Sequence record: OZ035744.1
Direction: 5' to 3' (one strand)
From: Felixounavirus LF110P1
DNA length: 64,000 bases
Shown: positions 38,030-57,441 of the stretch, piece after piece
How the letters are laid out: the number at the start of each line of letters is the position of its first letter
How positions within the stretch are numbered: the stretch's first letter is position 1
The notes under the pieces: generated by a model
What the model saw: only the letters and a program-made list of their open reading frames with translations
Database searches by the model: none
What the model was told of the DNA's origin: nothing
Translations under genes and position numbers: made by a program

Positions 38030-38058
38030 TTGACAATAGAGTATCAACAAATTAGAAT
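38030..38058 (+). promoter_or_regulatory. Sigma70-like promoter TTGACA-17-TAGAAT
   Basis: TTGACA at 38030-38035, 17-bp spacer, TAGAAT at 38053-38058, ~35 nt upstream of the SSB-like gene. Confidence 0.55.
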
Positions 38059-38094
38059 TGGTACTCTTCATAAATTGAGATAGAGGTTTAAATA

Positions 38095-38952
38095 ATGTCT
38101 AAAGTTGTTAAAATGAAAGCTCCGGTAGAGAAGTACAACGGTACTGAACGTCAAACTCTGCGTTACCTGCTGAAAGATGTCTGGTTTTATTACCTGAACA
38201 CTTCACCACGTCCGGGAAAAGGTAAGTCTATTGATAAGAAATTCCCAGGCAAGGACTGTAACTACAGCGTATCAATTCTGGCAGAAGACGGTAACAAACT
38301 GTTTAAAGAGTTTACTAAGTCTAAGAAAAACCCAGAGGGTTGGGATAAAGTTACCACTGAAGCAGTTGATGCAGACGACTTCGAAGAGAAGTTTGGTTGT
38401 AAACCACCTTTTGAAGCAGACACTTACTACATCTTGAAAGTAAGTCGTGCAGCAGCTTATAAAGATGGTGCTGTATGGACAGCTAAACAGTCATTCCCTG
38501 TAATGCTGATTGAAGAAGTAAACGGTAAACGTGTAGCTGTTAAACAGCCGATGAAGAAAATCAAAGCTCAAGCATCTGATAAGCATGAAGATGATAAGAA
38601 CTATGATGTAATTCATCCAGATATTGCAGTTGGTAACGGTTCTTTTGGTAGTGTGATTCTTTCTACTCACTTCTACACTTTTGAGAACAATGTTCTGACT
38701 AAACCTATTCAGGAACAGTTTATCATTGATACTCTTGTACCTTACACTGGTGGTAACGGTGCTAATGGTGAACCTGAACTGGATGAAGATGAACTGGCTA
38801 TGCTTGGTCTTGATGGTGTCGAAGATAACGGTGAAATCACTGAAGAAGACGCAACAGACCATAAATCTTCGAATGATTCTGATGATGGTGATGATGAAGA
38901 TTTGCCAGACCCAGATGACGAAGAGGATGAAGACTTCGATACAGAAGATTAA
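38095..38952 (+). CDS. Single-stranded DNA-binding protein (T7 gp2.5-like, putative)
   Basis: 285 aa with a highly acidic C-terminal tail DSDDGDDEDLPDPDDEEDEDFDTED; position within the replication block. Confidence 0.5.
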   Translation: MSKVVKMKAPVEKYNGTERQTLRYLLKDVWFYYLNTSPRPGKGKSIDKKFPGKDCNYSVSILAEDGNKLFKEFTKSKKNPEGWDKVTTEAVDADDFEEKFGCKPPFEADTYYILKVSRAAAYKDGAVWTAKQSFPVMLIEEVNGKRVAVKQPMKKIKAQASDKHEDDKNYDVIHPDIAVGNGSFGSVILSTHFYTFENNVLTKPIQEQFIIDTLVPYTGGNGANGEPELDEDELAMLGLDGVEDNGEITEEDATDHKSSNDSDDGDDEDLPDPDDEEDEDFDTED

Positions 38953-39013
38953 TCTCTAAAGTTACTTTAAAGCCCTGTACTCCGTATGGGGCTTTTTCAT
39001 ATGGAGAGCCATA

Positions 39014-40054
39014 ATGGAGAAGTACACATTAACAAAACTTCCCGATTCAGTTACACATGTTTTTATTGACTCTGACAGTATTGCCTATAAAGGTGCTTGT
39101 GTAGTTGAGAAATCAAAATATAAATACGTCAATAAACTCACAGCAGAAGAATCTGAGCCATTTGATAATGCGAAAGATGCTGCAAGATGGTTAGCAGACC
39201 AGAGAATCCTTGTGGAAGAACTTGGCCTGACATTTGATGAAGATGAATGGGAAAGACAGACTTGGAAAGAAGCTAAGAGTGAAAAAGAAGCTATCATGGC
39301 TACTCAACAGGTGCTTCAGGAATGGCTTAAGATTGTTGGTAAAGAAAGAACTTGGGTAGGCTATTTAACAGAGAAAGGTGTGCATAAACATAAAGACATT
39401 AAAGGTCTTGAGCACCAATATCAAGGTAACCGTAAAGATGCTGTCACACCAACACACTTAGTTGCTTGTCGTGAATACCTTTTATCCAGACCAGAGTTCA
39501 AGCTCTTAAAGGGGGGCTTCGAAGCCGATTCAATCGTAATTGCTAAAGCTGAAAAGATGGGTAAGAAGGCTGCTCTTATGAGTATTGATAAAGACCTTCG
39601 ACAAGCTGAAGGAACTTATTGTATTGATATGACTTATGAAAAATCACCACTAATCTTTATTGCTGATAATAATGTTGGTGATATCTGGGATTGTCCTATC
39701 AAATCAAAACCAAAAGCTGCAAAAACAGTTGGTGTAGGTTTTAAGTTCTTATGCTATCAGGCTGTTGCTGGAGATAATGCAGACAACTACTTCGGACTTA
39801 AAGGTGCTGGTAAAGTAGCTGTGATGAATGCTTTAGATGGTAAAGAGACCTACAAAGAGTGTCTTGATGCTATCTATGAACTCTATGCTAAAAAAGACTC
39901 TTATACCTATGTGTCATGGGATGGACAGACTGTTACAAAGACACCGTTAGAGTTAATGGAACAGCATTTCTGGATAGCATATCAAGAGAGAAATCCAAAA
40001 GACAATTTCTCTTTCAAGAAATATAATTGGGAGCCGTGTATGAATGAAGATTAA
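39014..40054 (+). CDS. 5'-3' exonuclease/flap endonuclease (RNase H-like)
   Basis: HVFIDSDSIAYKGA, GFEADSIVIAKAE, MSIDKDLRQ and GDNADNYFGLKGAGKVAV align by eye with conserved T4 RNase H/FEN blocks. Confidence 0.6.
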   Translation: MEKYTLTKLPDSVTHVFIDSDSIAYKGACVVEKSKYKYVNKLTAEESEPFDNAKDAARWLADQRILVEELGLTFDEDEWERQTWKEAKSEKEAIMATQQVLQEWLKIVGKERTWVGYLTEKGVHKHKDIKGLEHQYQGNRKDAVTPTHLVACREYLLSRPEFKLLKGGFEADSIVIAKAEKMGKKAALMSIDKDLRQAEGTYCIDMTYEKSPLIFIADNNVGDIWDCPIKSKPKAAKTVGVGFKFLCYQAVAGDNADNYFGLKGAGKVAVMNALDGKETYKECLDAIYELYAKKDSYTYVSWDGQTVTKTPLELMEQHFWIAYQERNPKDNFSFKKYNWEPCMNED

Positions 40055-40541
40055 AGGATTTGGCAATTGCCCTACCTACGGTCATTGGGTATCTTTATGT
40101 GGGGAAGTTGACCCCACTAAACATTTTGGCTTTGTCTATTTAGTACACTGTAAGAAGACTGGACAATATTATATAGGAAAGAAACAGCTTAACAGTGTGA
40201 CCAAAAGAAAAGTTGCTGGGAAGACTCGGAAGAAGGTAGTCACTAAGGAAAGTGATTGGATGACTTACGAAACCTCTTCTGAGTATATTAAAAAAGATAT
40301 TGAGAGCTTTGGAAAAGAATTTTTTGACTTTTACATTATTCAGACCTACTACACAAAAGGTGGCCTAGTCTATGGTGAAGCAAACCTTCAACATAAATTC
40401 GATGTAATGACAAAAAGGATTGACTCGAAGCTCAGACTCTTCTACAATGCCAATATTGCAGCAATTAAGTTTATTACTAAAGAAACTTATGAAGATGCTG
40501 AAAAAAGAATCCATAAGGTAATGAAAGCAAATTGTGCTTGA
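40044..40541 (+). CDS. GIY-YIG-like nuclease domain protein (putative)
   Basis: FGFVYLVHCKKTGQYYIGKK matches a GIY-(x10)-YIG spacing; 165 aa. Confidence 0.35.
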   Translation: MKIKGFGNCPTYGHWVSLCGEVDPTKHFGFVYLVHCKKTGQYYIGKKQLNSVTKRKVAGKTRKKVVTKESDWMTYETSSEYIKKDIESFGKEFFDFYIIQTYYTKGGLVYGEANLQHKFDVMTKRIDSKLRLFYNANIAAIKFITKETYEDAEKRIHKVMKANCA

Positions 40542-40547
40542 TAACTA

Positions 40548-40793
40548 TTGAGAGAGAATAAAATGTTTAACAAAAGTAAAGCTGTGAGTCATGTAGCAAA
40601 AGTTGACAGTAAGATTGAAGAACTTGAGCGCATTCTTGCAAATGCTAGAGAGTCAATAATTAAAGAAGTTGAAGCTGTTGAATCACAAATGCAGCATCTA
40701 ATGCTTAAACGCCAAGAGCTACGTGAGCATCTGGAATATATTGAAACACGAGAGCTAAAGGTTAACAGATTTTTAAGGAGTCCAAATGTTTAA
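40548..40793 (+). CDS. Small coiled-coil protein
   Basis: 81 aa. Confidence 0.3.
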   Translation: MRENKMFNKSKAVSHVAKVDSKIEELERILANARESIIKEVEAVESQMQHLMLKRQELREHLEYIETRELKVNRFLRSPNV

Positions 40794-41541
40794 CTCAAGA
40801 GAAGCAGTAAAAAACTGGAATCTTCGTTGTGGAAACACTCAAAAGAAACCTTACAGTGATGAGTATTGGGAATCTTTAAAATCCCAGTCTCTGTGTATGC
40901 TGGAAGAAGCAAAAGAGCTTGTAAAAGCAATTGAAGAGAAAGACCCCATTGAGACACTGGATGCTCAGGCAGATTTGCAATATGTTCTTGACGGTTTGAT
41001 TTACCTGTCACAACATGACCATAACGGTGCTATGAAAGCTGTTTGCCGTAATAATGACCTGAAGTACACAGATGACTATGAAGAAGCTTTAAAACGTCTT
41101 GCAGATATTGAGAAGCGTACTGGTCAAGAGTGTATTATCAGAATGTCAGTAGTTGATGGTAAAGAGTGGTATGCCATTGTTCGTGCAGCAGATGGGAAGA
41201 TTATGAAGCAATCGAATCTCCCTAAAGTACAGCTTGGTGAATACATTGTAGAACTTGAAAGCCAAGAACTTTTTGTGGTAGTATCTGAGACATGCGTTAT
41301 CTGCAAAGGTATTGTAGATAGTTTAAAGGATTTGGGTGTAGATGGTTTTGTAGAAGTTAATCCAATTACCTCTAAAGCAGATAAAGACTTCTGTAAAGAG
41401 AATGGACTATGGATTGCAGATATTGTCTATTATGATGGTGAGCAGTTCCATGTAACCTCATACCCGAAACTGAATTATGATGCTAATAACCTGAAGTGCT
41501 GGTTAAAAGGGGTTGGTTATAATGGATTCACAGAACATTAA
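40786..41541 (+). CDS. Two-domain protein: MazG-like N-terminus and thioredoxin-fold-like C-terminus with a CxxC (putative)
   Basis: N-terminal acidic helical motifs MLEEAKELVKAIEE and DAQADLQYVLDGL; C-terminal FVVVSETCVICKG resembles a glutaredoxin strand-CxxC-helix start. Confidence 0.3.
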   Translation: MFNSREAVKNWNLRCGNTQKKPYSDEYWESLKSQSLCMLEEAKELVKAIEEKDPIETLDAQADLQYVLDGLIYLSQHDHNGAMKAVCRNNDLKYTDDYEEALKRLADIEKRTGQECIIRMSVVDGKEWYAIVRAADGKIMKQSNLPKVQLGEYIVELESQELFVVVSETCVICKGIVDSLKDLGVDGFVEVNPITSKADKDFCKENGLWIADIVYYDGEQFHVTSYPKLNYDANNLKCWLKGVGYNGFTEH

Positions 41542-41845
41542 TAAAGAGGGTGTGGCTCAGAAGAGCCACTTCTCAAACTACAATATTTCTATGACGGTGT
41601 TCATGAATGACCCGTTACTAGAAAAATATGGTGAGACTCCAGATACACTTCTGGACAATGAACAAGTTTTAAAAGCAGTCCTGTACAAATATGGGATTGA
41701 TATTGAGAAAGAATATTCCTTTGAAATCTGCCAACACAGGAATACTTTCGGTAAAGTTGTGATGGCTCCACTCTTTATGGGTGTAGAAAGGACTGACTAT
41801 GGTTGGTTATATCTAAAAAGAAACTTGGAGAAATACCGTGTCTAA
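41513..41845 (+). CDS. Hypothetical protein
   Basis: 110 aa ORF. Confidence 0.3.
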   Translation: MVIMDSQNINKEGVAQKSHFSNYNISMTVFMNDPLLEKYGETPDTLLDNEQVLKAVLYKYGIDIEKEYSFEICQHRNTFGKVVMAPLFMGVERTDYGWLYLKRNLEKYRV

Positions 41846-42176
41846 AGCAAAAAAGCTATCTTATGATGATATTGTCTCAGGTGCTAAGTTAGGCGTTGAC
41901 AGCCTCGGACAAGATGTTAAGCACGGGGACACAGTTATGTACTGTGATGACCGAAGAGGTAGAAGTGCAATCTTGTTTGGAAGAATTGTTTGCAAGATGC
42001 GAGGCAATTACGTTGTTGCAGACATGGATGTGAACGTTACACAAAAACTTGAAACACTTATGGATGATAATACATCATCATGGTTCCCCCTGAACTGTAT
42101 GCACACTTCTTCAGTCACAAAAGTAAGTGATAAGTTTTACGATATGTGGCAGAATGAGCAAATTTTCAAGATTTAA
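41838..42176 (+). CDS. Hypothetical protein
   Basis: 112 aa ORF followed by a strong terminator. Confidence 0.3.
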   Translation: MSKAKKLSYDDIVSGAKLGVDSLGQDVKHGDTVMYCDDRRGRSAILFGRIVCKMRGNYVVADMDVNVTQKLETLMDDNTSSWFPLNCMHTSSVTKVSDKFYDMWQNEQIFKI

Positions 42177-42182
42177 ACTAGG

Positions 42183-42204
42183 GAGCCTCTTCGGAGGCTC
42201 TTTT
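42183..42204 (+). terminator. Rho-independent terminator (TTCG tetraloop)
   Basis: GAGCCTC ttcg GAGGCTC followed by TTTT. Confidence 0.6.
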
Positions 42205-42222
42205 CATCTGTAGGATTCAAAA

Positions 42223-44457
42223 ATGATTAAGACAATTAAAAAATCAAACGGTACAGTAGTAAGCTTTGACCCAGAAAGACTGAATAAGTGGGCATCATGG
42301 GCAGATAAACGTGGAATTATCTGGTCAGAAGTCACTATGGAAGCTATGAAACGTGTCTATGAGGGTTGCACTACAAAAGAGATGCACCAAGCCATGATTG
42401 ATGTTTGTGTTGATAAACAAACTCAAGAGTACTCAGATATGGCTGGACGACTACTTTTGGGTATTATCTACAAAGAAGCATTTGGAGGCTTTACTAAGGT
42501 TCCTACGCTGGTTACCTTCGTTAAAAATATGGAGAGAGCAGGACTTTGGGAGAAGATGGACTACTCACAGGAAGAGCTTGAATACCTGCAAGGTTACATT
42601 GTGCACTCAAAAGATATCTCTTACGGTTATGCAGTCTTGAAACAGTTCAGAGACAAGTATGGTATCCGTGATATTAAAACGGGAAGACTTTTTGAGTCAC
42701 CACAATTTATGTTTATGGGTATGGCTATGAAAGCCTTTGAGAAGCAACCAAAGCACCGTAGATTACAAGATGTTATCAAGCTGTACACTTACCTATCTGA
42801 CCTGAAGATTAACGCTCCTACACCTTATCTGAATGGTTTAAGGGCCACTAAATCAGGTTATGCGTCATGCTGTTTGATTAAGGCAAATGACACTGCCGAA
42901 TCTCTCGGTATTGCTGCAAAGGTTGCTTATGATATGACTACAAAGCAAGCTGGCATTGGGATGCTGATGGAGACTCGTACTATTGGTGATGGTATCCGTC
43001 AAAATACTATTGAGCACATGGGTAAACTACCTTATTACAAGCTTGTACGCTCATCTGTAGAGGCAAACAAACAGAAGAGTCGTGGTGGTTCAGCTAATAA
43101 CTTCTACACTGCTCTAGACCCGCAGATTGAAGATTTACTGCGTTTGAAGCACCCTACAACGGTTCCTTCTAAACGTATTAATGAGATGGACTACTCATTC
43201 GGCACAAACGATTATTTCTGGCAGTGTGTTCAGTATGATACAGATTGGTTGCTATTCTCTTACAAAGATGCACCAAAACTCTATGACATGTTCTACACAG
43301 CATCTGCTGATGAGTTTGCTATGGCAGTTGGTCACGCAGTGCATTCAGGTGTTAAGCACAGACGAGTAAAGGCTCGTGAAATTGCTAAACTGTTTATCCA
43401 GCAGCGTTATGCAACAGGTCGTGTGTACCCATTCTTCACGAATAATGCAAACACACATACACCATTTAAAGAGCCTTTGAAGATGTCAAATCTTTGTATG
43501 GAAATTGTATTGCCAGTGTATGGTTTTGAGAAAGAGACAGACCTTTACAGAGATGATGCTGTGAAAGAGGATGGTGAGGTGGCTCTTTGCTTCCTAGCTA
43601 GTTTGGTTGCAGGGAGAATTTCAGAAGATGAATACGCTGACGTTGCTTATTATGCTCTTGCAATGGTTGACTCCGTTATTGACCTTATGGATTATCCGTA
43701 TCCGTCGATGCGTAACCACGTTCAGAAGCGTCGTTCTGTTGGGATTGGCCTTACAAATGTGGCTCATTACCTTGCGAAGAACTACGTGAACTACTCTTCA
43801 CGAGCAGGTAAAACGAAACTTCATGAACTGGCAGAGATGCACTCTTACTATCTGCATGAAGCCTCTCTGAGACTTGCTAAAGAACGTGGCGTGCCAGAGT
43901 ACATGAAGTTCACTAAGTATCCTGAAGGCTGGGTTCCTCCAAAGACAGCTAACAAGAAGATTGATGAAAAGCATGATGCAAAACTACGATATGATTGGGA
44001 TGACTTAGCACAACGTATCAAAGAAAATGGTGGAATCCGAAACTCTGTATTAGAAGCTTACATGCCTAATGAGAGTTCTTCACTGGCAACCAATACGACA
44101 AACGGCTTGTATCCAATTCGTGACTTTATTTTAACTAAAAAGTCTGCAACTGGTAACGTACTGTTTATTGTTCCAGATTATGAAGAGTTGAAGTATGTAT
44201 ATGAAATTGCTTGGGGTATTGACACCTTTGACCTGATTGATTGTTATGCAATTGTTCAAAAGTTCACTGGTCAAGCTATCTCTTCAGATTTCTATGTTGA
44301 CTACGCAAAAGCTAAGAAGGTATCATTGGCTCAAGCTTTGAAGTACATGATTTATGCCAACTCGGTAGGTATGAAAACCATGTACTACCTTAACAGTCGC
44401 ATTGGTGTAGGTAAATCTGCACTGCAAGATGCTTATTGCGAGGGTTGTGGTGTTTAG
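42223..44457 (+). CDS. nrdA: Ribonucleotide reductase class Ia large subunit
   Basis: 744 aa; N-terminal ATP-cone-like IKKSNGTVVSFDPERL; C-terminal Cys pair CEGCG; followed by nrdB. Confidence 0.85.
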   Translation: MIKTIKKSNGTVVSFDPERLNKWASWADKRGIIWSEVTMEAMKRVYEGCTTKEMHQAMIDVCVDKQTQEYSDMAGRLLLGIIYKEAFGGFTKVPTLVTFVKNMERAGLWEKMDYSQEELEYLQGYIVHSKDISYGYAVLKQFRDKYGIRDIKTGRLFESPQFMFMGMAMKAFEKQPKHRRLQDVIKLYTYLSDLKINAPTPYLNGLRATKSGYASCCLIKANDTAESLGIAAKVAYDMTTKQAGIGMLMETRTIGDGIRQNTIEHMGKLPYYKLVRSSVEANKQKSRGGSANNFYTALDPQIEDLLRLKHPTTVPSKRINEMDYSFGTNDYFWQCVQYDTDWLLFSYKDAPKLYDMFYTASADEFAMAVGHAVHSGVKHRRVKAREIAKLFIQQRYATGRVYPFFTNNANTHTPFKEPLKMSNLCMEIVLPVYGFEKETDLYRDDAVKEDGEVALCFLASLVAGRISEDEYADVAYYALAMVDSVIDLMDYPYPSMRNHVQKRRSVGIGLTNVAHYLAKNYVNYSSRAGKTKLHELAEMHSYYLHEASLRLAKERGVPEYMKFTKYPEGWVPPKTANKKIDEKHDAKLRYDWDDLAQRIKENGGIRNSVLEAYMPNESSSLATNTTNGLYPIRDFILTKKSATGNVLFIVPDYEELKYVYEIAWGIDTFDLIDCYAIVQKFTGQAISSDFYVDYAKAKKVSLAQALKYMIYANSVGMKTMYYLNSRIGVGKSALQDAYCEGCGV

Positions 44458-44512
44458 TTTTAACAACTATGAGGGTCGTAAAAGACCCTCTAAAAATAAC
44501 TTTGGAGAGACC

Positions 44513-44770
44513 ATGAAAGATTTAATAGAAAAACATGAGCGACCAATATACTTGCTCTACAAACCCCGCAAAGCATTGTACTATGTGAGCAGCACAGGTA
44601 TCATGATAAAGCAGAATAATGACTTATGGGTCACTGGAGCCTCTTACATCTCTACAGCAGACGGTAAAATCTACGCAAGACCTTATGAGATGTTCAACAA
44701 AGAAAATTGGGAAGTTTTAGACAGAAAACAAGCCTTAGAAATGATAAAGAAAGGAGAAATCACGCTATGA
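44513..44770 (+). CDS. Hypothetical protein (start chosen at ATG 44513, GGAGAG RBS)
   Basis: 85 aa; stop overlaps the nrdB ATG (ATGA). Confidence 0.3.
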   Translation: MKDLIEKHERPIYLLYKPRKALYYVSSTGIMIKQNNDLWVTGASYISTADGKIYARPYEMFNKENWEVLDRKQALEMIKKGEITL

Positions 44771-45840
44771 TTAACCAGCACCCAATCTTTTTAGGTGGTG
44801 AGAGAAAAACTTTTGACTCACTTAATAAACACTACCCAAAAATCTTTGAACTTTATAAACAACAAAAAGCACAAGACTGGTCAGAAGATGAGTTCCCTTT
44901 TGAACAATCACGTCTTGATTTTGAGAGTGTCCCAGCATCAATGTCAGGTGTAATGCTTGAGATTCTTAAGTGGCAGTGGGAAGCAGATACTCAAGTTGCT
45001 AAGAGCTTGGCATTTGCCTTTGCACCATTTATCTCTGATGACATCTATGCAACTGCAATTATGAAGCAGTCTGAGATTGAAAACCTACATGCCCTTACTT
45101 ACTCAGAGATTGTAAGGCAATGTATTAAAAACCCTGAAACAATCTTAGATGAGATTAACCAGAATATTGCTGTACAAGACCGATTAAAAACTGTGAATCG
45201 TGTTCTTGAAGAATTGCTGGACGAAGGTATAAACTATCGGCTAAGTTATGTCCGTGACTCACTTCTGGATAAAGACCCTTTACACTTCCATAAAGTGATT
45301 CTAAAAGGTCTATTTGCAGTGACTGCACTTGAAGGTATATCCTTTATGGCATCCTTTGCATGTACTTTTGCACTTGATGCTCAAGATAAATTTCAGGGTA
45401 TTGCTCAAGCTGTCCAGAAAATTATGCTTGATGAAATCCTTCACACTAAAATTGATATTGAAGTTTTAAAAGAAACTTTAAGAGATGATGAGTGGCAAAA
45501 AGCTTTCCAACAAATTCTTCCAGAGATTAAAGTAATCTTAGATGAAGTAGTTGAAAGCGAAGAGAAATGGTCGTATTATATCTTCTCCGAAGGACGCGCT
45601 GTAGTTGGATTAAATACAAAGCTTCTTCATGAGTGGGTTTACTATAATGCTGCCCCACTGTATGATATGTTTGGCATTCCCAGAGATTTTGTAGCTCCTA
45701 AAGAACCACCTTTGAAGTATATGATTAAGAAGATGGAAATTGATAAAGAGCAGAATGCTAATCAGGAGCAACAGAACGGTGCGTATTTATTGAATACTGT
45801 TGTAGATGATTTGAATAGTGGATTTTTAGAGGTTCCTTAA
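44767..45840 (+). CDS. nrdB: Ribonucleotide reductase class Ia small subunit (start at 44767, not the track's 44707)
   Basis: ~357 aa helical protein directly downstream of nrdA; GGAG RBS upstream of the 44767 ATG. Confidence 0.8.
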   Translation: MINQHPIFLGGERKTFDSLNKHYPKIFELYKQQKAQDWSEDEFPFEQSRLDFESVPASMSGVMLEILKWQWEADTQVAKSLAFAFAPFISDDIYATAIMKQSEIENLHALTYSEIVRQCIKNPETILDEINQNIAVQDRLKTVNRVLEELLDEGINYRLSYVRDSLLDKDPLHFHKVILKGLFAVTALEGISFMASFACTFALDAQDKFQGIAQAVQKIMLDEILHTKIDIEVLKETLRDDEWQKAFQQILPEIKVILDEVVESEEKWSYYIFSEGRAVVGLNTKLLHEWVYYNAAPLYDMFGIPRDFVAPKEPPLKYMIKKMEIDKEQNANQEQQNGAYLLNTVVDDLNSGFLEVP

Positions 45841-46082
45841 TGACTTATGTAATTTACTCCAAAACTGGATGCCCTCAGTGTGAGACTGCAAAGAATTTTG
45901 CAAAAGCTCGTGGTATTGACCATGTTGTAAGAATGTTAGGACAGGATTATGAACTGTCAGACCTGATGGATATTGCACAGATGCCAGTTCGTCAGATGCC
46001 ATTCATCATGAAAACTGACGGTCAAAACCTAAAACCTGTTGGAACGCTACAGAATTTTATGGCAGAGGTGAATAATGCTTAA
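45840..46082 (+). CDS. Glutaredoxin/NrdH-like redoxin
   Basis: CPQC active site after an N-terminal beta strand (VIYSKTGCPQCETAK); 80 aa; sits between nrdB and nrdD. Confidence 0.7.
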   Translation: MTYVIYSKTGCPQCETAKNFAKARGIDHVVRMLGQDYELSDLMDIAQMPVRQMPFIMKTDGQNLKPVGTLQNFMAEVNNA

Positions 46083-46281: not shown

Positions 46282-46288
46282 AATGAAA

Positions 46289-48474: not shown

Positions 48475-48483
48475 AACTTGACA

Positions 48484-48525
48484 AGGTGATGTGGGTCTTG
48501 ATAGGCTTACATCACCTTTTTTTTT
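48484..48525 (+). terminator. Strong rho-independent terminator after nrdD
   Basis: AGGTGATGT ... ACATCACCT followed by a run of nine T. Confidence 0.7.
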
Positions 48526-48631
48526 ATTGGATGTTAGATATGGCAGAGAGTATTATTGGGTTGTTCATAGGTTCTGTCTTACTAGGGTTCTTTTTAGGAC
48601 TCTCTTATTGTGAATTGAAAGGTAAGTTAAA

Positions 48632-49520: not shown

Positions 49521-49529
49521 GGTAACTAG

Positions 49530-50015
49530 ATGAATTACATGGAGATTAGACCATTTGACACAGCTAATGGTGAAGGGGTTCGTGTAAGCCTCTTCGTAGC
49601 TGGTTGTAAGCATCACTGTGAAGGCTGCTTTAACAGGGAGTCTTGGAAGTTTAATGCTGGTAAAGAGTTTACTTATGCAAACCTTTACGGGATTCTAAGA
49701 CTTTTGGAAGATGATTCTTTAAGTGGTCTATCTATTCTCGGTGGAGAACCACTGGATGACCGTAATGTTGAAGAGGTCACAAAAATTTGCCAGAAGGTAA
49801 AGTCTATCTACCCAGAGAAGTCTATATGGCTCTGGACAGGTTTTCAACTACACGAAAAGATTCACTTAGATGTGATGAAATATGTTGACGTGGTGATTGA
49901 TGGTAAGTATGATTCATCTAAACCAACAGTTAAACCGTATCGTGGTTCTGATAACCAAAACCTCTGGAGAAAAGAGTATGGATGGCAAGGCGATTGTCAG
50001 TGGAGAGCCGAGTAG
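49530..50015 (+). CDS. nrdG: Anaerobic RNR activating enzyme (radical SAM)
   Basis: CKHHCEGCFN (CxxxCxxC iron-sulfur cluster motif); ~160 aa; close to nrdD. Confidence 0.8.
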   Translation: MNYMEIRPFDTANGEGVRVSLFVAGCKHHCEGCFNRESWKFNAGKEFTYANLYGILRLLEDDSLSGLSILGGEPLDDRNVEEVTKICQKVKSIYPEKSIWLWTGFQLHEKIHLDVMKYVDVVIDGKYDSSKPTVKPYRGSDNQNLWRKEYGWQGDCQWRAE

Positions 50016-50042
50016 CGGTGGATTCAAACGCGGTGAGTTTGT

Positions 50043-50298
50043 TATGTCGTACTGTAACATGTCACTATTTGGTAGCTACAAAGTAAATCCAGAAACCATT
50101 GAAGAGTGGAAAGTCTATACTAAAAGTCTGTTTGACTCCACTGGTATGGAAGCATTGAAATGTATTGAGGATGCTGGAGTATTTAAAGTAAAATACAAAG
50201 CACATTTCTCAAATTTTTACGCGACAAACTTACGTGTTGATGATAAAGTTGTCTCAGTTACTGAAGAAGAACTTAATAAGTTCTGTATTAAACTTTAA
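50043..50298 (+). CDS. Hypothetical protein (start chosen downstream of the nrdG overlap)
   Basis: Track ORF 49897..50298 overlaps nrdG; first ATG after the nrdG stop is 50043. Confidence 0.3.
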
Positions 50299-50579
50299 TG
50301 AGAGAGACTAAAATGGGAATTTTAGGTAATATGAAATCTGGCTTCTTGAAGGCACTGGCAAAAGCAGCAGCAATCATTTCTATAACTGGAAAGCAGGTTG
50401 GTGTAGATGCTTCAGCAGTTGCACAAGTTCTTACAAGCCAAATTGAACAGCAACCTTACATCTATGTAGGCCGTGGCAAAGGTGGTAAGAAACAAGCCCA
50501 CCGTCCGTCTGGTGCAGCAGCTATTAAACGAGCAGCTAAGAAAGCTCGTAACCGTAAACGTAATAAGAAGGCTAAATAA
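50298..50579 (+). CDS. Hypothetical protein with a strongly basic C-terminus
   Basis: C-terminal KRAAKKARNRKRNKKAK. Confidence 0.3.
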   Translation: MRETKMGILGNMKSGFLKALAKAAAIISITGKQVGVDASAVAQVLTSQIEQQPYIYVGRGKGGKKQAHRPSGAAAIKRAAKKARNRKRNKKAK

Positions 50580-50581
50580 TC

Positions 50582-50902
50582 ATGAGCAAAGTTTATAACA
50601 CTCGCAAATTACAGATTTTCGTACTGTGCCAGTTTATGGCTAAAGAGTATAACTTCTACTATTGCGGCACAGGTTTTATTAGTGATGATGATGGCTCATA
50701 CCTCCCATTCAAAGAAGCTGTAAAGCTCTTTAATGAAGAGAAAAGCTCTAAGAAAGATATTGAAAAGGTTAAGCTAACCTACAGCAAGAAAGATAAGAAG
50801 ATTATCTGCCTAGATAACTTTGTAAAAGTTACTGGAGAAGCAAAAGAGTTTATGGATGAGAGTGAGATTTCATTCACAAGCATCTTGAAAGTAGCTCAGT
50901 AA
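50582..50902 (+). CDS. Hypothetical protein
   Basis: 106 aa, followed by a terminator. Confidence 0.3.
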   Translation: MSKVYNTRKLQIFVLCQFMAKEYNFYYCGTGFISDDDGSYLPFKEAVKLFNEEKSSKKDIEKVKLTYSKKDKKIICLDNFVKVTGEAKEFMDESEISFTSILKVAQ

Positions 50903-50914
50903 ACAGATACTATA

Positions 50915-50939
50915 AGGGAACTGTAAAGGTTCCCTTTTT
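50915..50939 (+). terminator. Rho-independent terminator
   Basis: AGGGAAC tgtaaag GTTCCCT followed by TTTTT. Confidence 0.6.
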
Positions 50940-50953
50940 ATTTTGGAGATGAT

Positions 50954-51469
50954 ATGTATCTGTCAAACCTAAAACGTTCTGCTGCAATGTCAGTGCTAAG
51001 ACTCAGCTTTGAGGAACGTCAAGAGTTCATTGACTCCCACCAATACGACCCCTCAAACTCCAATCACATGATTCTCTGGAATCGTGAAAGTACTCGTGAA
51101 AGAGCACTATTCCGTTATTACCCACACTACACTATAGATAACCTGTATGAATTGTTTGTTGTGAAGAACACCATTACAGTGCTCAATAAACTTTGCAGAT
51201 ACACAGGCAGTCAATCCTTCACATTAGGCCATCACAAACCTGTTACAAAGGGTGGTGAGCATCACTGTGCAAACTGGTTTATTCAGACTAAACTTGATAA
51301 CCAGAAGCAAGGGGATAACCTTCTAAGCACCCCTAAGATGACCTACGAAGAGCAAGAGAAATATATCAAAAATAATATGCCAGATGTGCTTGACAACCAC
51401 TATACAGATTTGGCAATATCTCTCCTGTTGAAGTTCGAGACAGTTTATAGGGCAACTTACAATGGCTAA
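50954..51469 (+). CDS. HNH-like nuclease motif protein (putative)
   Basis: LGHHKPVTKGGEHHCANWFIQTKLDNQKQGDN resembles an HNH core (HH...N...N). Confidence 0.3.
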   Translation: MYLSNLKRSAAMSVLRLSFEERQEFIDSHQYDPSNSNHMILWNRESTRERALFRYYPHYTIDNLYELFVVKNTITVLNKLCRYTGSQSFTLGHHKPVTKGGEHHCANWFIQTKLDNQKQGDNLLSTPKMTYEEQEKYIKNNMPDVLDNHYTDLAISLLLKFETVYRATYNG

Positions 51470-51740
51470 AGAAAAGTGGGAGATTTTACCATTAGTCAGT
51501 GAAGGTGGTAATGGTTGTGAGATGTACATGATACGTGGTCATGTTCCAGAACCAATTGCGCTTGAGATGGTAAACAACTTTACAGATGGTTCTTACAAAG
51601 ACTTAGGAGAGCCAACTATAAAGCATCAATGGGTAAAGCCTGTACCAGACAGCACAGGTAACTGTAGTGTACTTTACCACGTTGTAGACCCTGTAAAATG
51701 CAAATCTGCAATGGCAGTAACAAACGTAACCTTTGATTGA
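51462..51740 (+). CDS. Hypothetical protein
   Basis: 92 aa. Confidence 0.3.
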   Translation: MAKEKWEILPLVSEGGNGCEMYMIRGHVPEPIALEMVNNFTDGSYKDLGEPTIKHQWVKPVPDSTGNCSVLYHVVDPVKCKSAMAVTNVTFD

Positions 51741-51755
51741 GATAGAGAGAAAACT

Positions 51756-52637
51756 ATGAAAACTGTTATTGAAGCCGTCATCACCGCACAAGAGAAATTC
51801 TTCCACACAGAAAAATTTAACATCATCCAATTCCCATCTGGAGAAATTGGTGGAAACTTCTCTGAAGATTTTGTTAAGTTTGCTGAGCGTAATGCTGGTA
51901 AGATTGATAATGTTATATTTACTGTACAGGGGTATGACAAAGATACACTGTTTGCATTAGCTTTGGCTAAGGATGCCGTTGACAGTCTTGTTCCCCAGAA
52001 ATCAGCGATGAAAACCGTTGTTTTCGGGTTCTTACCAAATGCTCGATATGACCGCCACATGTTCAAAGGTGATGCAGCAGCACTGAAAGTCTTTGCCAAC
52101 CTCGTTAATGCAATGGGTTTTGATGCAGTATGTGCTCTTGACCCTCACAGTAATGTTGCAGAAAACTTATTTAAGTGTTTTCAGAGCATGAAGCAAAAAG
52201 ATGTGGCAGTACACTTTGCAAGTGACCCACGCATTGATTTCTTAGTAGCCCCAGATGCAGGTGCAGCTAAGAAGACTGAAGATGCCGCTAAAGAGGTGGA
52301 TAAACCATATATCACAATGTCTAAAGTGCGTAACCTTAAGACTGGTGAAATTACTGGTATGCGAATCCTTGATGATGTTGATTTGACAGATAAAACCGTC
52401 ATGATTCTGGATGATATTTGTGATGGTGGGCGAACCTTCATAGAGGCAGCTAAACATCTTCGTGAAGCAGGTGCAAAACGTGTGGAACTCTATGTAACTC
52501 ATGGTATTTTCTCTAAAGGTGTTGAAAACTTACTTGACAATGGTATTGACCATATCTACACTACAAACTCTTTGGGTGAAGCTAAAGACCGTGGCTTAAC
52601 ACATTACGCCCAAGTTACTGTAGTAACTATTGATTGA
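51756..52637 (+). CDS. Ribose-phosphate pyrophosphokinase (Prs) family protein; could be canonical PRPP synthetase or an ADP-ribose pyrophosphokinase (Adps-like)
   Basis: PRPP-binding signature VMILDDICDGGRTF, plus FGFLPNARYDRH and LDPHS blocks aligning with Prs FGYARQDRR and DLHA. Confidence 0.8.
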   Translation: MKTVIEAVITAQEKFFHTEKFNIIQFPSGEIGGNFSEDFVKFAERNAGKIDNVIFTVQGYDKDTLFALALAKDAVDSLVPQKSAMKTVVFGFLPNARYDRHMFKGDAAALKVFANLVNAMGFDAVCALDPHSNVAENLFKCFQSMKQKDVAVHFASDPRIDFLVAPDAGAAKKTEDAAKEVDKPYITMSKVRNLKTGEITGMRILDDVDLTDKTVMILDDICDGGRTFIEAAKHLREAGAKRVELYVTHGIFSKGVENLLDNGIDHIYTTNSLGEAKDRGLTHYAQVTVVTID

Positions 52638-52646
52638 AACTTTATA

Positions 52647-52667
52647 GGGGCTTGAAAGCCCCATTTT
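52647..52667 (+). terminator. Hairpin between the Prs-like and NAMPT-like genes (weak terminator or attenuator)
   Basis: GGGGCTT gaa AAGCCCC followed by ATTTT. Confidence 0.35.
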
Positions 52668-52682
52668 GAGAGAGATTAAAAG

Positions 52683-54464
52683 ATGACTAAATCACTTTAT
52701 GCCGTACCAGCAGGTTTAAACGCAGATGCTTACAAATCTGGTCATGTTTACCAGTATCCTAGTGCAACAGAGTACTTGATGTTCAACCTGACACCACGTA
52801 GTGACAAATGGTTTAACAGCCCTTTGGCAATTGACGGTGTAGTGGCTTTTGGTATTCAACGTTTCGTTAAAGATTACTTGATAGACCATTGGAACGCCAC
52901 TTTCTTTGAACGTGACAAAAAAGAAGCAATTGACGAAATCTTAGAAGTCATGAACGGTGTTCTGGGCAAAGATGCTATTGGTCGAGAGCATTGGGAAGCA
53001 CTTCACGACTTAGGTTATCTGCCAGTCGAAGTATACGCTGTAGAAGAAGGCACAGTTGTTCCGATGCGTGTCCCAATGATTGTATTCCAGAACACTGTTT
53101 CAGGTTTCCATTGGGTAGCGGGGTATCTGGAAGATGCTTTCTCTGCTGAGATTTGGAAGGCTTGTACCATTGCAACTATTGCATTGCACTACAAACGTAT
53201 CTGTAAGAAGTGGGCTGACCTCACTTGTGACAACGACTTCCATTTACCTTATCAGTGCCATGACTTTGCTATGCGTGGTATGTCCGGCTTTACTGATGAC
53301 GCATTTAACGCTGTAGGTCACTTAACCAGCTTTAAAGGAACTGATAGCTTCCCTGCTGTATACACTGCTAAACGAATCTATGGTCAGTCTTACCCAATCT
53401 CTGATATTGGTAGTTCTGTACCAGCCACTGAACACTCTGTAATGTGTGCAAACATTGCTTGGGAAGGTGGTAATGAATTGATTGAAGATGAAAGACGCTT
53501 TAAAGGTGAGTTACAAACCTTCCGTCGTTTTTTAACAGAAACTTACCCAACTGGTATTGCAAGTGTTGTTTCAGATACTTATAATTTCTGGAGAACTGTA
53601 TCAGTCATATTACCAGAACTCCGTAAAGAGATTATGGAACGCAATGGCAAACTGGTAATTCGTCCTGATTCTGGAGACCCTGTGCATATTGTCACAGGAT
53701 ACAAAGCAATCCATTTAGAGTGTGCTAAAAAGGCTTATTACGAACACTTAAGCAAGCTTGAAGCCAGCGACACAATGTTGAATGCTGTTCTGAACATGAA
53801 GCTTGAAAACATCAATTATGGTATTGCTGGATGGCTACTGTCAGAAGGCTACGAAATGGTTGTTGACAGAGAAGACTTTGAAGTTGCTGATACAGTACTG
53901 CTGAAGAATGCTTATATGGTTGGTTCTGCAAACGTTGTAACACGTCCTGTAGCAGAGATTGATGGAGCTATTAAGACCCTGTATAACATCTTCGGAGGGA
54001 CTATCAACTCTAAAGGATTCAAGGTACTGGATGAGCATATCGGCCTTATCTATGGTGACTCTATCACGCTGGAACGTGCAAACGAAATCCTGAAGCGCCT
54101 TTATGAAATGGGTTTTGCAAGCTCTAACGTGGTGTTTGGTGTAGGCTCTTACACTTACCAGTACATGACTCGTGACACATTTGCATTTGCTGTCAAAGCA
54201 ACTCTTGCAAGCATTGGTGGTAAAGAGATTATGCTTGCAAAAGACCCTAAAACAGATAGCGGTGTTAAGAAATCTGCCTTTGGTGGTGTAGCGCCTATGT
54301 GGGACGGTGATAAACTGAAAGCTGTAGATGGCTACGGATTCCAGAGTTTTGCAGATGTACTTGACCACCAAGCTTGTGCTTTACGTTTAGTCTTTAGTGA
54401 CTCTGAGCAGTTTGGTTACACAACTCTTGGTGATATTCGAAATAATATTGACAAGCAGCTTTAA
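52683..54464 (+). CDS. Nicotinamide phosphoribosyltransferase (NAMPT/NadV) family protein; possibly Namat-like
   Basis: N-terminal NADAYKSGHVYQYP matches the NAMPT DSYKVTHYKQYP block; 593 aa, longer than I would expect for a typical NAMPT. Confidence 0.75.
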   Translation: MTKSLYAVPAGLNADAYKSGHVYQYPSATEYLMFNLTPRSDKWFNSPLAIDGVVAFGIQRFVKDYLIDHWNATFFERDKKEAIDEILEVMNGVLGKDAIGREHWEALHDLGYLPVEVYAVEEGTVVPMRVPMIVFQNTVSGFHWVAGYLEDAFSAEIWKACTIATIALHYKRICKKWADLTCDNDFHLPYQCHDFAMRGMSGFTDDAFNAVGHLTSFKGTDSFPAVYTAKRIYGQSYPISDIGSSVPATEHSVMCANIAWEGGNELIEDERRFKGELQTFRRFLTETYPTGIASVVSDTYNFWRTVSVILPELRKEIMERNGKLVIRPDSGDPVHIVTGYKAIHLECAKKAYYEHLSKLEASDTMLNAVLNMKLENINYGIAGWLLSEGYEMVVDREDFEVADTVLLKNAYMVGSANVVTRPVAEIDGAIKTLYNIFGGTINSKGFKVLDEHIGLIYGDSITLERANEILKRLYEMGFASSNVVFGVGSYTYQYMTRDTFAFAVKATLASIGGKEIMLAKDPKTDSGVKKSAFGGVAPMWDGDKLKAVDGYGFQSFADVLDHQACALRLVFSDSEQFGYTTLGDIRNNIDKQL

Positions 54465-54477
54465 AAGTATATGATAA

Positions 54478-54499
54478 GAGGCTCCCGTAGGAGCCTCTT
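54478..54499 (+). terminator. Terminator-like hairpin
   Basis: AGAGGCTCC cgta GGAGCCTCT followed by TTAATTT. Confidence 0.4.
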
Positions 54500-54517
54500 T
54501 AATTTCTGGAGAAAACT

Positions 54518-54853
54518 ATGAAAATCAAAGAGATGAACATCAACATTGTCTTAGAAGAACGTTGGGAGAACATCAATAAGCCTGAAGATGGCCATAAGTT
54601 CCTTAACAAAATTTTAGTAGCAGCTAAAGAAGAACTGACTGGTAAGATTGCAGCAGCAATCACAATAAAGGTCTGCGTAAAAGGTCTTCCAGACAATCAC
54701 CAATTTGCACTTGACGAGTTTAAAGGAAGCTTCTACAATCCAAACAAACAGATGCTTGAAAGTAACTTTGCAGTGTCTACAAGTATCGTTCATGACAGAA
54801 GCTTTATCCTTTACAAGAATATGAGAGGTGAGTCATGCAAGCATATTGGATAG
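54518..54853 (+). CDS. Hypothetical protein
   Basis: 111 aa. Confidence 0.35.
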   Translation: MKIKEMNINIVLEERWENINKPEDGHKFLNKILVAAKEELTGKIAAAITIKVCVKGLPDNHQFALDEFKGSFYNPNKQMLESNFAVSTSIVHDRSFILYKNMRGESCKHIG

Positions 54854-55011
54854 AAATTTTGCTGTCACTTGGTAGTGTAGCAGTATTTGTTTACCTCCTT
54901 TGTAAGTACTTTGCAGAGCACAAAAAATGTGACTACTGTAATGGAGAGGGGTACATAAGGGCAGGATGTTGCCCTATGTGTGGTGGTTCTGGTAAAATGT
55001 TTAATAAGTAA
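54835..55011 (+). CDS. Small membrane-anchored zinc-finger protein (DnaJ-like CxxCxGxG repeats); not in the supplied track
   Basis: Hand translation MQAYWIEILLSLGSVAVFVYLLCKYFAEHKKCDYCNGEGYIRAGCCPMCGGSGKMFNK; GAGG RBS 8 nt upstream. Confidence 0.4.
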   Translation: MQAYWIEILLSLGSVAVFVYLLCKYFAEHKKCDYCNGEGYIRAGCCPMCGGSGKMFNK

Positions 55012-55039
55012 TTTAACAGTAAACTGAGAGGAAAGTATT

Positions 55040-57406
55040 ATGCGCATGGTAAATGACCACGCAGAAGTGATTAAGAGTTCAACTTCTTTAGAGACGTCTC
55101 AAGCACAGATTACAATGACACCTGAGATGTTCAGCCTTTTGAGTTCTGGTGTGTATACCTTTAAAGAAAGGGCAGTGATTCGTGAACTGTCATGTAACGC
55201 AGTAGATGCTCAGAAAGAAGCTGGAAAAGAGAACATCCCATTCCATGTGCATTTACCTACTCGTTTTGAGCCTTACTTCGAAGTTCGTGATTTTGGAACT
55301 GGATTGACTCATGATAAAGTTATGAGTTTGTACCTAAACTATGGAGCTTCTACGAAGAATGACTCTAATGACTACATTGGTGCAATGGGTATCGGCTCAA
55401 AGTCACCATTTGCAATTGCTCAGTCATTCACAGTATCTAGTTATGTTGACGGTGTTGTTAATAAGTACTCTGTTTATCTTGAGAATGGTATCCCTCAAGT
55501 AACTAAGCTGACAACTAACCAAACAAAAGAACCTAATGGTTTAGCTGTACGTGTGGCAGTTGCTGACCACCGTATCTCAAAGTTCTTTGAAGAAGCTGGG
55601 AATGTGTACTCATACTTCACTGTAAAACCAGAAAGTAATATTGAGTACGACGATGTATTAGCAGATATGAACGTAATTGCCCGTGAAGAAGGTGTTTATG
55701 AGGCCATGATTCATAAGCACAGCTGGCGTTCTAGTGATAACAGGACAGAGTTTAATGTGGTGATGGGTAACATTGCCTATCCAGTGAACATGGAAGCGTT
55801 ACTTGGTGATGATTTCTTCAAAGTCTTGCCAGAGTTTTTCCGTAGGAGCGTAGACCTTGTAAACATCTACATGCCTATTGGTTCAGTTGCTATTGCAGCT
55901 TCTCGTGAAGCATTGCAGATGAATGACACGACAAAAAATGTTATCATTGAGGCTACTAAAAAGATAACTGAAGCCATTACAAAGGATGTTATCAAGAAAG
56001 TTAATAGCCAACCTACACTCATGGATGCTGCACAGGCTTATGCTGAGTTACGTTTGAACTCACGAGAGATGTTTAATGCTGTGTGTCCAAAGCTAGAGTG
56101 GGGTGGCGTTAAGCTTGATTCTCTGGAAGAAGAATTGCTAAACATTCGTCGTGGAATTATCTACGCAGAAGACGGCTCAGTCATTTACGAACGTGACGGT
56201 AAAGGTAATATTAAGGTTGATAGGAACGGGAACAATATCCCTAAAGTAGATTATCTTTATGACCCAGTTGCTTATGTCAAGTTTAACTCTTTAGAGAGTA
56301 AGATTCGTGCAACAGCACTATCCTACACTCAAGAGGCGAGCATGTTCAACATCTTTGGTGCAATGCGCAAAAGCCAGATTGGACAGTTTTTGTTCGTGAT
56401 TAATGACCGTCGAAATAAAAATGGCACTGAGAAGACTGTTGGGCGTAACCAAATCTTGCGTGGTGCATGTCGAGACTATGCAAGTGAGTCTAGTCTGTTT
56501 CACAGATACAATGGTATTGTCTTTGTATTCTCGACTGAAAAAGAGTTAGATGACTTAATCAATCTGCACAAACTTGATAAAAGTTTGTTAAAGATTGTGA
56601 AAATGTCTGATAAGGAGCACCATTACCAGCGTAAAGAAGCTGTAAGAGGTGTTGTAAAACTCTGGAAAGCTGTTCCAGCAGAAGGTGTAGCTTCCTATAA
56701 AGAGGTTTCAGAAGACTTTGATACAATTGAAGAGCCTCAGCTTTACATTAAGGCAGTTGGTGACACAGTTGATGGCGAATGTTTTTGCTCATCTCCAGAA
56801 GATGTAGCCAAGTCAGTTGCTAATGTTACAGGGAAGACAGTCTATGTTTTCCGAAAAGCAAATTGGAAAAAGATACCAGAAGACTGGATTGAAGTAGATG
56901 AGAAACTCTTGAACGATAGCTTAACTGATGTTCATTGGATTAATCATAACAGGTATATGACACGTATCTATATGAATGGTGTCCTTGACCTTACAAGCAG
57001 TTGGATTATTGCCAGAAACTTTACGTTCAATAACAGGAAGATTTCTCGTGGCTATTGCTATTCACGGGATACAAACAAAACTATCTTCCTAGAAGGTAAT
57101 GAAGAGGCTGTAGAGGCAATGTTTGGTAAAATCCAGTATGTTGCTGCACCATTTGCATACACTTACACTATTAGTGTGTTGAAAACTTTGAAAGATTGTC
57201 TTGACAACGATACAAAGCTTTACAAGAAAATTAAGAAAGCTGGTGACCGTATGGTTATTAAGGTGACAAACTACCTTTCAAAAAGAAAACAAGAAAACTT
57301 CTTGCTTTCCCATTTAGATTGGAATAAAGTGTCACCCATCGAAGTGAGTAAGTTCTTAGGTTTTGATGTGAAGTGTGTTCCAGAAGGAACTACAGTTTAC
57401 GATTAA
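55040..57406 (+). CDS. rIIA: rIIA-like protein (GHKL ATPase N-terminal domain)
   Basis: ERAVIRELSCNAVDAQ, EVRDFGTGL and DSNDYIGAMGIGSKSPFAIAQSFTVSSY closely parallel T4 rIIA blocks as I recall them. Confidence 0.85.
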   Translation: MRMVNDHAEVIKSSTSLETSQAQITMTPEMFSLLSSGVYTFKERAVIRELSCNAVDAQKEAGKENIPFHVHLPTRFEPYFEVRDFGTGLTHDKVMSLYLNYGASTKNDSNDYIGAMGIGSKSPFAIAQSFTVSSYVDGVVNKYSVYLENGIPQVTKLTTNQTKEPNGLAVRVAVADHRISKFFEEAGNVYSYFTVKPESNIEYDDVLADMNVIAREEGVYEAMIHKHSWRSSDNRTEFNVVMGNIAYPVNMEALLGDDFFKVLPEFFRRSVDLVNIYMPIGSVAIAASREALQMNDTTKNVIIEATKKITEAITKDVIKKVNSQPTLMDAAQAYAELRLNSREMFNAVCPKLEWGGVKLDSLEEELLNIRRGIIYAEDGSVIYERDGKGNIKVDRNGNNIPKVDYLYDPVAYVKFNSLESKIRATALSYTQEASMFNIFGAMRKSQIGQFLFVINDRRNKNGTEKTVGRNQILRGACRDYASESSLFHRYNGIVFVFSTEKELDDLINLHKLDKSLLKIVKMSDKEHHYQRKEAVRGVVKLWKAVPAEGVASYKEVSEDFDTIEEPQLYIKAVGDTVDGECFCSSPEDVAKSVANVTGKTVYVFRKANWKKIPEDWIEVDEKLLNDSLTDVHWINHNRYMTRIYMNGVLDLTSSWIIARNFTFNNRKISRGYCYSRDTNKTIFLEGNEEAVEAMFGKIQYVAAPFAYTYTISVLKTLKDCLDNDTKLYKKIKKAGDRMVIKVTNYLSKRKQENFLLSHLDWNKVSPIEVSKFLGFDVKCVPEGTTVYD

Positions 57407-57411
57407 AGTGT

Positions 57412-57441
57412 TTGACAAGGGGCTTCAAAGCCCCTTAGAAT
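57412..57441 (+). promoter_or_regulatory. TTGACA-18-TAGAAT promoter-like element with a palindromic spacer
   Basis: TTGACA 57412-57417; spacer AGGGGCTTCAAAGCCCCT is a perfect hairpin; TAGAAT 57436-57441; lies between rIIA and rIIB. Confidence 0.4.

Follow-up and report, generated by a model that had tools for sequence, protein, structure and literature searches.

Two intergenic elements in a 64,000-nucleotide (nt) stretch of DNA from Felixounavirus LF110P1 (record OZ035744.1; the whole stretch is referred to here as the window) each combine a predicted promoter for host RNA polymerase with a conserved hairpin. One lies between the genes rIIA and rIIB, and the other precedes a gene for a 285-residue protein. 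On balance, we lean towards reading both as compact stop/restart modules, in which a sigma-70 promoter is interleaved with the hairpin. Host RNA polymerase carrying the housekeeping sigma-70 would read both promoters, which would restart transcription within a long rightward early/middle block, before rIIB and before the 285-residue gene of the replication cluster. The start site would lie after or inside the hairpin, such that only RNA arriving from upstream would fold it. On this read-through RNA the hairpin would terminate weakly (as an attenuator), protect the 3' end, or both. RNA begun at the nested promoter would be unaffected, because a transcript that starts after or inside the hairpin cannot form it. 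The outcome would be a downstream gene that is uncoupled from the upstream gene, with a level and timing of its own.

The observations comprise sequence features, enrichment, conservation and covariation, and from these promoter activity, start positions and the effect of the hairpins on RNA are inferred. Relatives were compared with alignment tools and partly by hand. The rIIA/rIIB region is 96-98% identical to that of many Felix O1-like myoviruses, which places the window in Felixounavirus, and the top match is phage ULIM9 (97.9%). Late structural genes occupy the plus strand up to about 23.6 kilobases (kb), a leftward block with the DNA polymerase gene at its end extends from 23.6 to 33.2 kb, and the long rightward block, from 33.4 kb on, holds the replication, nucleotide-metabolism and rII genes. 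Non-coding sequence makes up 5.7% of the window.

A preliminary description of this DNA had reported the boxes TTGACA and TAGAAT upstream of what it called an 'SSB-like' gene and again between rIIA and rIIB, and both sites are present. TTGACA-N17-TAGAAT is found at 38030-38058 on the plus strand, 36 nt before the ATG at 38095, and TTGACA-N18-TAGAAT at 57412-57441, between the rIIA stop at 57406 and the rIIB ATG at 57486, with 44 nt from the end of the -10 to that ATG; both are on the coding strand. A third exact copy, absent from that description, occurs at 37691-37719 (plus strand). The -35 matches TTGACA at all six positions in each of the three, and TAGAAT matches TATAAT at five of six, so that both cited promoters agree with the consensus at 11 of 12 positions. 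Spacers of 17, 17 and 18 nt (at 38030, 37691 and 57412, respectively) fall within 17 ± 1. When both strands of the window were searched for exact TTGACA-N16-19-TAGAAT, these three copies were found against 0.10 expected, and none of the 100 shuffles that served as control reached three. A strict class, defined as a perfect TTGACA with TAnnnT at 16-18 nt, has 14 members in the window; eight of them overlap the non-coding 5.7%, and all eight are in sense orientation. A loose promoter scan of the window gave no overall excess (45 sites against 49.7 expected; 65 against 50.6).

The near-perfect match, the spacing, the orientation, the distance to the gene, the intergenic enrichment and the retention of the hexamers while their flanks vary are the grounds on which both elements are read as sigma-70 promoters. 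The earlier proposal that they are of host type thus gains indirect support, to which conservation across genera and the prediction of the same sites by others also contribute. The further idea that a recurrent TAGAAT is a special signature finds no support, since the -10 of the same promoter in relatives is TAAGAT, TAATAT, TAACAT or TAAAGT; what the relatives keep is TAnnnT. TAGAAT was likewise rejected as a phage-specific -10, given these other -10 sequences and the location of most TAGAAT copies within coding sequence, and it is simply a near-consensus -10.

The third copy lies within a small open reading frame (ORF; 37583-37876, plus strand). It is conserved in the genus, and more distant relatives have TTGACT or TTGACG-17-TAAAGT at this position, where coding constraint is inseparable from promoter constraint. 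Folding detected no local RNA structure at 37691-37719 (z +0.66). The predicted start of this internal promoter (about 37725-37726) falls directly at an in-frame ATG (37727) of the surrounding ORF, so that a shorter product might be translated from a leaderless RNA; more distant relatives do not keep this ATG.

In the rIIA-rIIB element, the hairpin fills the spacer of the promoter. The rIIA gene (55040-57406) and the rIIB gene (57486-58595), both on the plus strand and named from the annotation of relatives, lie upstream and downstream of it, respectively. The -35 (57412-57417) is kept in Felixounavirus, Suspvirus and Mooglevirus relatives, with one TTGACT, and the -10 (57436-57441) is TAAAAT in two relatives. 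The spacer between them, AGGGGCTTCAAAGCCCCT, had been described as a perfect palindrome, which it is not, but it does contribute to a perfect stem of 8 base pairs (bp) closed by a 4-nt loop: AAGGGGCT-TCAA-AGCCCCTT, with 57417-57424 paired to 57429-57436 around a core of GGGGC-N6-GCCCC. The stem also takes in one base of each hexamer, the final A of the -35 and the initial T of the -10. The hairpin starts 11 nt past the rIIA stop and is G+C-rich and stable, with a predicted folding energy of -15.5 kcal/mol in a 55-nt context (z -3.1) and of -12.5 kcal/mol alone. From the usual distance of 6-8 nt to the -10, the rIIB transcript would start at about 57447-57449. In close relatives the stem is invariant and the loop variable. 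Relatives whose rIIB protein is 76-84% identical retain the arrangement TTGACA-GGGGC-loop-GCCCC-T-TAGAAT with a 17-nt spacer, the length recorded for the Suspvirus and Mooglevirus relatives; in these rIIB relatives the hexamers are kept, and the loop and the bases past the -10 vary.

A hairpin at this position is found in every sampled Ounavirinae clade, with stems that differ: GGGGC/GCCCC, GGGGCTG/CAGCCCC, TGGTGGC/GCCACCA and GTGGTC/GGCCAC. The full forms in the last three are GGGGCTG-GAAA-CAGCCCC in Erwinia phages (Kolesnikvirus), TGGTGGC-CTAACAA-GCCACCA in the group of Pectobacterium phage Arno162, and GTGGTC-TAATAA-GGCCAC in a Hafnia-type contig. All four fold well (z -3.1 to -4.0), and each stem is followed by at most two to four U. 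No -35 and -10 flank the hairpin in Kolesnikvirus and the Arno162 group, where rIIB must be read through it; hence in these two groups it is not a full terminator and terminates at most partially. The hairpin is older and more widespread than the rIIB promoter. The earlier suggestion that the element serves both as an attenuator of rIIA read-through and as a promoter for rIIB remains plausible and is strengthened by the retention of a hairpin with different stems in all sampled clades, although neither a U-tract nor a terminator call accompanies it.

Several other observations concern this region. The core GGGGC-N6-GCCCC occurs three times in the window against 0.01 expected, the other plus-strand copies being at 20514-20529, with TTTACA just before it, and at 52647-52662. 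Alleles that are reverse-complement flips of one another were seen at two hairpins, namely 57419-57434 (GGGGC-TTCAAA-GCCCC and GGGGC-TTTGAA-GCCCC) and 54476-54499 (GGCTCC-CGTA-GGAGCC and GGCTCC-TACG-GGAGCC), which suggests loop inversion through template switching or recombination between the arms. Downstream of the hairpin, the rIIB leader (57460-57475) keeps TTAAAC or TTAACTAAC in all sampled Ounavirinae clades, the remaining leader differing.

The second element lies before the 285-residue gene (38095-38952, plus strand), which is situated between the primase-helicase and exonuclease genes. Here the hairpin (38038-38067) surrounds the -10 of the predicted promoter at 38030-38058: its 5' arm, AGAGTATCAA (38038-38047), is in the spacer, TAGAA is in the loop, and its 3' arm, TTGGTACTCT (38058-38067), covers the predicted start site. 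Folding gives -9.1 kcal/mol, with a z of about -2. The -35/-10 pair with its 17-nt spacer is found in five clades, as TTGACA/TAGAAT in Felixounavirus, TTGACA with TAAGAT, TAATAT or TAACAT in Suspvirus and Mooglevirus, TTGCAA/TAAGAT in Kolesnikvirus, TTGACT/TAAAGT in a Hafnia-phage group and TTGACA/TAACAT in Arno162, and it is kept despite upstream genes that differ between clades. A hairpin overlaps the promoter in all five, in a somewhat different register in each. In an arms-only alignment of nine sequences from three clades, fitted to the structure, 97.5% of cells are paired and five of the nine pairs have changed on both sides, with G-U pairing kept; the covariation score exceeds that of every shuffle.

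The protein itself gave no match in Pfam, in PHROG functions or in a PDB profile search, and its single-sequence AlphaFold model is unusable (pLDDT 37). The label 'SSB-like' is consequently unverified; all that speaks for it is the acidic C-terminal tail of the protein together with synteny, the primase-helicase and exonuclease genes being its neighbours.

The same kind of layout is encountered at other places in the genome. The preliminary description had proposed a shared -35 context, TTGACAAGGTG, and its recurrence is real: two exact copies are on the plus strand (33207 and 48478) and one is on the minus strand (29903-29893), and TTGACAAGG occurs six times against 0.94 expected. The minus-strand site at 27170-27156, also listed as a recurrence, reads TTGACAAGTCAGGTG and has only the -35 in common. 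At 48478, 29903 (minus strand) and 57412 the additional AGG(TG) is the start of a hairpin arm and varies with its partner, and TTGACAAGGTG was therefore set aside as an extended -35 or factor-binding site; the feature in common is a -35 that directly abuts a hairpin. At 48478-48527 (plus strand) TTGACA abuts the strong terminator that follows nrdD (the nrdD terminator), a stem at 48483-48518 that carries the -10-like TAGGCT in its loop (48502-48507), is followed by a T run at 48519 and has a folding z of -5.4. In relatives the -35 of this element is invariant, the 16-nt loop varies at one position only and the stem is variable. Conservation of the hexamers and of the nrdD loop beside variable stems suggests that both functions are under selection. 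In some relatives about 60 nt of unrelated sequence, which form a hairpin of their own (GGCACA...TGTGCC), take the place of this module, and this shows that intergenic modules undergo mosaic exchange.

The minus-strand copy of TTGACAAGGTG forms part of an element at 29875-29903 in which a -35-like hexamer abuts the hairpin AAGGTGCTC-ATGGAA-GAGTACCTT. At 22939-22995 (plus strand) TTGACT-17-TAATAT is combined with a 12-bp hairpin (22949-22995; z -5.0) whose loop contains the -10, and at 54448-54499 (plus strand) TTGACA-16-TATGAT directly abuts the hairpin at 54476-54499. The 54448 site is a predicted promoter in the annotation of Escherichia phage vB_EcoM_ASO1A (ASO1A; MZ726791), and a Mooglevirus relative keeps its layout with TATTAT as the -10; at 50885 a -10 is likewise placed directly against a terminator hairpin. 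A tandem arrangement, TTGACA-N6-TTGACAAGGTG, overlaps an imperfect hairpin followed by GGTTTTT at 33195-33245 (plus strand), where the DNA polymerase gene and the rightward genes diverge. The tandem (33195-33217) is also present in the other divergent intergenic region of the genome, at 24062-24084 of ASO1A. Both copies have ACTTAAAAGGTT some 25-30 nt further on, and TTACTTAAAAG is repeated at 33243, 33255 and 33373; the tandem and these repeats could represent early promoters or origin-like repeats.

A -35-like hexamer, taken as at least five positions matching TTGACA and located -1 to 8 nt upstream, precedes, in sense, nine of the 30 intergenic hairpins, where the base rate would give about 2.6; in antisense it precedes none of 27. 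At 22939, 29903 (minus strand) and 33195 a -35-like hexamer stands directly before a hairpin. Promoter-like sites in intergenic sequence are structured (median z about -1.8), those in coding sequence are not (about +0.7), and the stem sequences change from promoter to promoter. Clear T runs follow hairpins of similar style at 48483, 50914 and 58609, and a U-tract is present at 50937.

A number of results weigh against the stop/restart interpretation. Neither cited hairpin is a canonical terminator, since neither is followed by a U-tract: the tails are TCATAAAT from 38068 on and TTAGAATA from 57437 on, and both hairpins are absent from a terminator scan that required at least five T within 8 nt. 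ASO1A has no terminator annotated at the homologue of either one. In the promoter-bearing clade the rIIB stem shows no compensatory change, and its invariance is uninformative on pairing. The covariation at the 285-residue gene is supportive without being conclusive, as the alignment covers three lineages and was fitted to the structure, and the two compensated pairs in the nrdD terminator stem are not significant (64 of 500 shuffles reach the count). Short intergenic regions crowd promoters and terminators together, which may account for part of the overlap. Finally, the literature on Felix O1-like phages yielded no usable data on start sites, RNA-seq or transcript 5' or 3' ends.

The absence of U-tracts bears most directly on the alternative that survives best, a fairly improbable one, in which the promoters are real and the hairpins do not terminate. 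Their role would be confined to the 3' end of upstream RNA, which they would stabilise or mark by blocking 3' exonucleases once Rho-dependent termination, or cleavage, has produced that end, or else they would be processing signals. The promoterless rIIA-rIIB hairpin of Kolesnikvirus and the Arno162 group, where rIIB needs read-through, is in keeping with this. Similar hairpins at other places in the genome, however, do have clear T runs (48483, 50914 and 58609), and RNase III needs stems longer than 8-10 bp, so that the stems in question would be too short for processing by that enzyme.

It can also be argued that the hexamers are unused and arise by chance or as a by-product of their position beside hairpins, as with a TGA stop contained in TTGACA, for example, or AT-rich tails that resemble a -10, with rIIB and the 285-residue gene reached by read-through only. 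The loose scan without overall enrichment, the 50 plus-strand copies of TTGACA, which is common in coding sequence, and the presence of the rIIB gene in clades that lack the hexamers would all accord with such a view. It is nonetheless quite improbable in the face of three exact patterns against 0.10 expected, of the eight strict-class sites, out of 14, that lie in the non-coding 5.7% in sense orientation, and of hexamers that are conserved across genera between variable neighbours; the timing of rIIA and rIIB also differs in phage Felix O1.

Two further readings treat the inverted repeats as DNA elements, and both are unlikely. In the first, which has only a slight probability, they would be double-stranded operators at which a dimeric regulator binds between the -35 and the -10 and brings about late shut-off. 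The position is a classical one for an operator, the GGGGC-N6-GCCCC core is invariant in the promoter-bearing clade and has three copies in the window, and the phage encodes an HTH_3 protein that could serve as regulator. This small protein (26208-26537, minus strand) has a Cro/C1-type helix-turn-helix (HTH_3, E 3e-9), is annotated in relatives as a transcriptional regulatory protein and is the sole obvious phage-encoded candidate regulator of these promoters. The arms, however, are wholly different between promoters (AGAGTATC, GGGGC, AGGTGATG and AAGATGGTG), which leaves no common dyad; the other two copies of the core have no -10, and loop length and register differ among clades. At the 285-residue gene, moreover, the arms change by compensated substitution and retain pairs of the G-U type, and such pairs would be meaningless in a duplex. 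An RNA structure is accordingly preferred over a protein-binding dyad, given the retained G-U pairs and the stems that differ from promoter to promoter. The second, that the hairpins extrude as cruciforms from supercoiled DNA and switch the promoter through the -35/-10 geometry, is very improbable: the flipped alleles at two hairpins would be expected if DNA arms pair at least during replication, but extrusion is hardly to be expected of stems as short as 5-10 bp with loops of 4-23 nt, and the position of the hairpin relative to the hexamers shifts between clades.

The stop/restart interpretation can also be set against existing annotation and expression data. In ASO1A both cited sites are annotated as predicted sigma-70 promoters, at 2298-2327 and 69752-69780, on the strength of their likeness to TTGACA(N15-18)TATAAT with one mismatch. 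The UAB_Phi87 paper gives 42 hypothetical promoters of the same TTGACA(N15-18)TATAAT type, and neither cited site is in the promoter list of the Felix O1 genome paper. These in silico lists for ASO1A, Felix O1 and UAB_Phi87 consist of pattern matches only, and hairpins, conservation and interleaving go unmentioned in them; nor is the promoter/hairpin layout described in an ONT-cappable-seq paper on Pseudomonas phages. The promoters themselves are ordinary and already predicted by others, and it is the nested layout that is modestly new. Reverse-transcription PCR in Felix O1 found ORF2 maximal at 10 min and ORF1 (rIIA) at 25 min. If ORF2, being second in order, is rIIB, this timing fits separate control of rIIB.

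A broader proposal, which we put forward tentatively and regard as less probable than the one for the two cited elements, is that throughout the Ounavirinae host-type promoters are deliberately built into hairpins, whether in the spacer, around the -10 or against the -10, such that the early/middle blocks would form insulated stop/restart chains. The layout recurs in the genome, and other genera keep it. How the many terminators are passed, whether by read-through or through secondary promoters downstream of them, was left open in the Felix O1 genome paper, and subfamily-wide modules, if real, would answer that question. In any case they are concrete, mutable candidates for secondary promoters downstream of terminators. 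Felix O1-like phages are widely used in typing and biocontrol of Salmonella and E. coli and increasingly in engineering, where a map of real promoters and insulators would be of practical value.

Some additional features of the genome fall outside these modules. A promoter-plus-leader cassette of about 100 nt is present in at least five copies before small early genes (63160-63250 in the window; 8047, 10224, 11275, about 12860 and about 13430 in ASO1A). It consists, in order, of TTGAC(A/T)-17-TAA(A/T)(A/T)T, about 10 nt, the hairpin GGGGAGGGAATGACCTTCCCC without a U-tract, ACTAAATAAAGTCCTAAACTGGAGATTC and the ATG. This hairpin would lie almost at the start of the transcript, in the manner of a 5' stem-loop that stabilises RNA, and part of the cassette is labelled 'terminator' in the ASO1A annotation. 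The 8-mer TATAGAAT (33335-33342; about 5612-5619 in Arno162) is kept in this phage and in the distant Arno162, some 50 nt before the first rightward gene of the divergent regulatory region, amid AT-rich sequence that has otherwise diverged. It has no -35 at the right distance in the window and TTAACA-18 in Arno162, and could be a -10-only or factor-dependent promoter. Within the minus-strand block, 27098-27709 is a 612-nt gap with no convincing ORF. It holds the sigma-70-like sites TTGACA-16-TATACT (27525) and TTGACA-17-TATTTT (27170) together with several strong hairpins, including a 20-bp stem near 27469, and is possibly a non-coding RNA or a regulatory region; when the whole window was compared with Rfam at gathering thresholds, no known RNA family was found there or elsewhere. 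Just past a large terminator (62761-62802), a direct repeat, CATTTTAGAATTGTGCAGGTAG, occurs at 62806-62827 and 62963-62984, about 157 nt apart.

Among known systems, that of T4 also provides rIIB with a promoter of its own, located downstream of rIIA, and with a separate onset. The T4 rIIB promoter, however, depends on the phage factors MotA and AsiA, and a MotA box stands where the -35 would be, whereas the promoter considered here has a perfect TTGACA. The MotA box has a TGCTT-like consensus centred near -30, and no such box (TGCTT) is visible near -30 of the promoters at 38030 or 57412. A parallel for the hexamers is provided by the T4 early, T5 early and lambda PL/PR promoters, which have near-consensus -35 and -10 sequences and recruit unmodified host polymerase; near-consensus hexamers are common to these and to the promoters described here. 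We know of no conserved hairpin in the spacer or around the -10 of those T4, T5 and lambda promoters.

In E. coli the frd terminator overlaps the ampC promoter/attenuator, so that a hairpin that ends one transcription unit is part of the start region of the following one. That hairpin lies downstream of the ampC start and attenuates ampC RNA too. By contrast, at rIIB, the 285-residue gene and 48478 the predicted start is after or inside the hairpin, and new RNA would escape it. Class II terminators of phage T7 have been reported to double as E. coli sigma-70 promoters (bioRxiv 10.64898/2026.02.12.705533), and these sites and the modules proposed here are alike in placing stop and start signals in one short sequence. 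The T7 class II sites, however, are hairpin-independent and have an extended TGn -10, whereas the modules of the Felix O1-like phages would join a hairpin-based stop-like element to a classical -35/-10 promoter.

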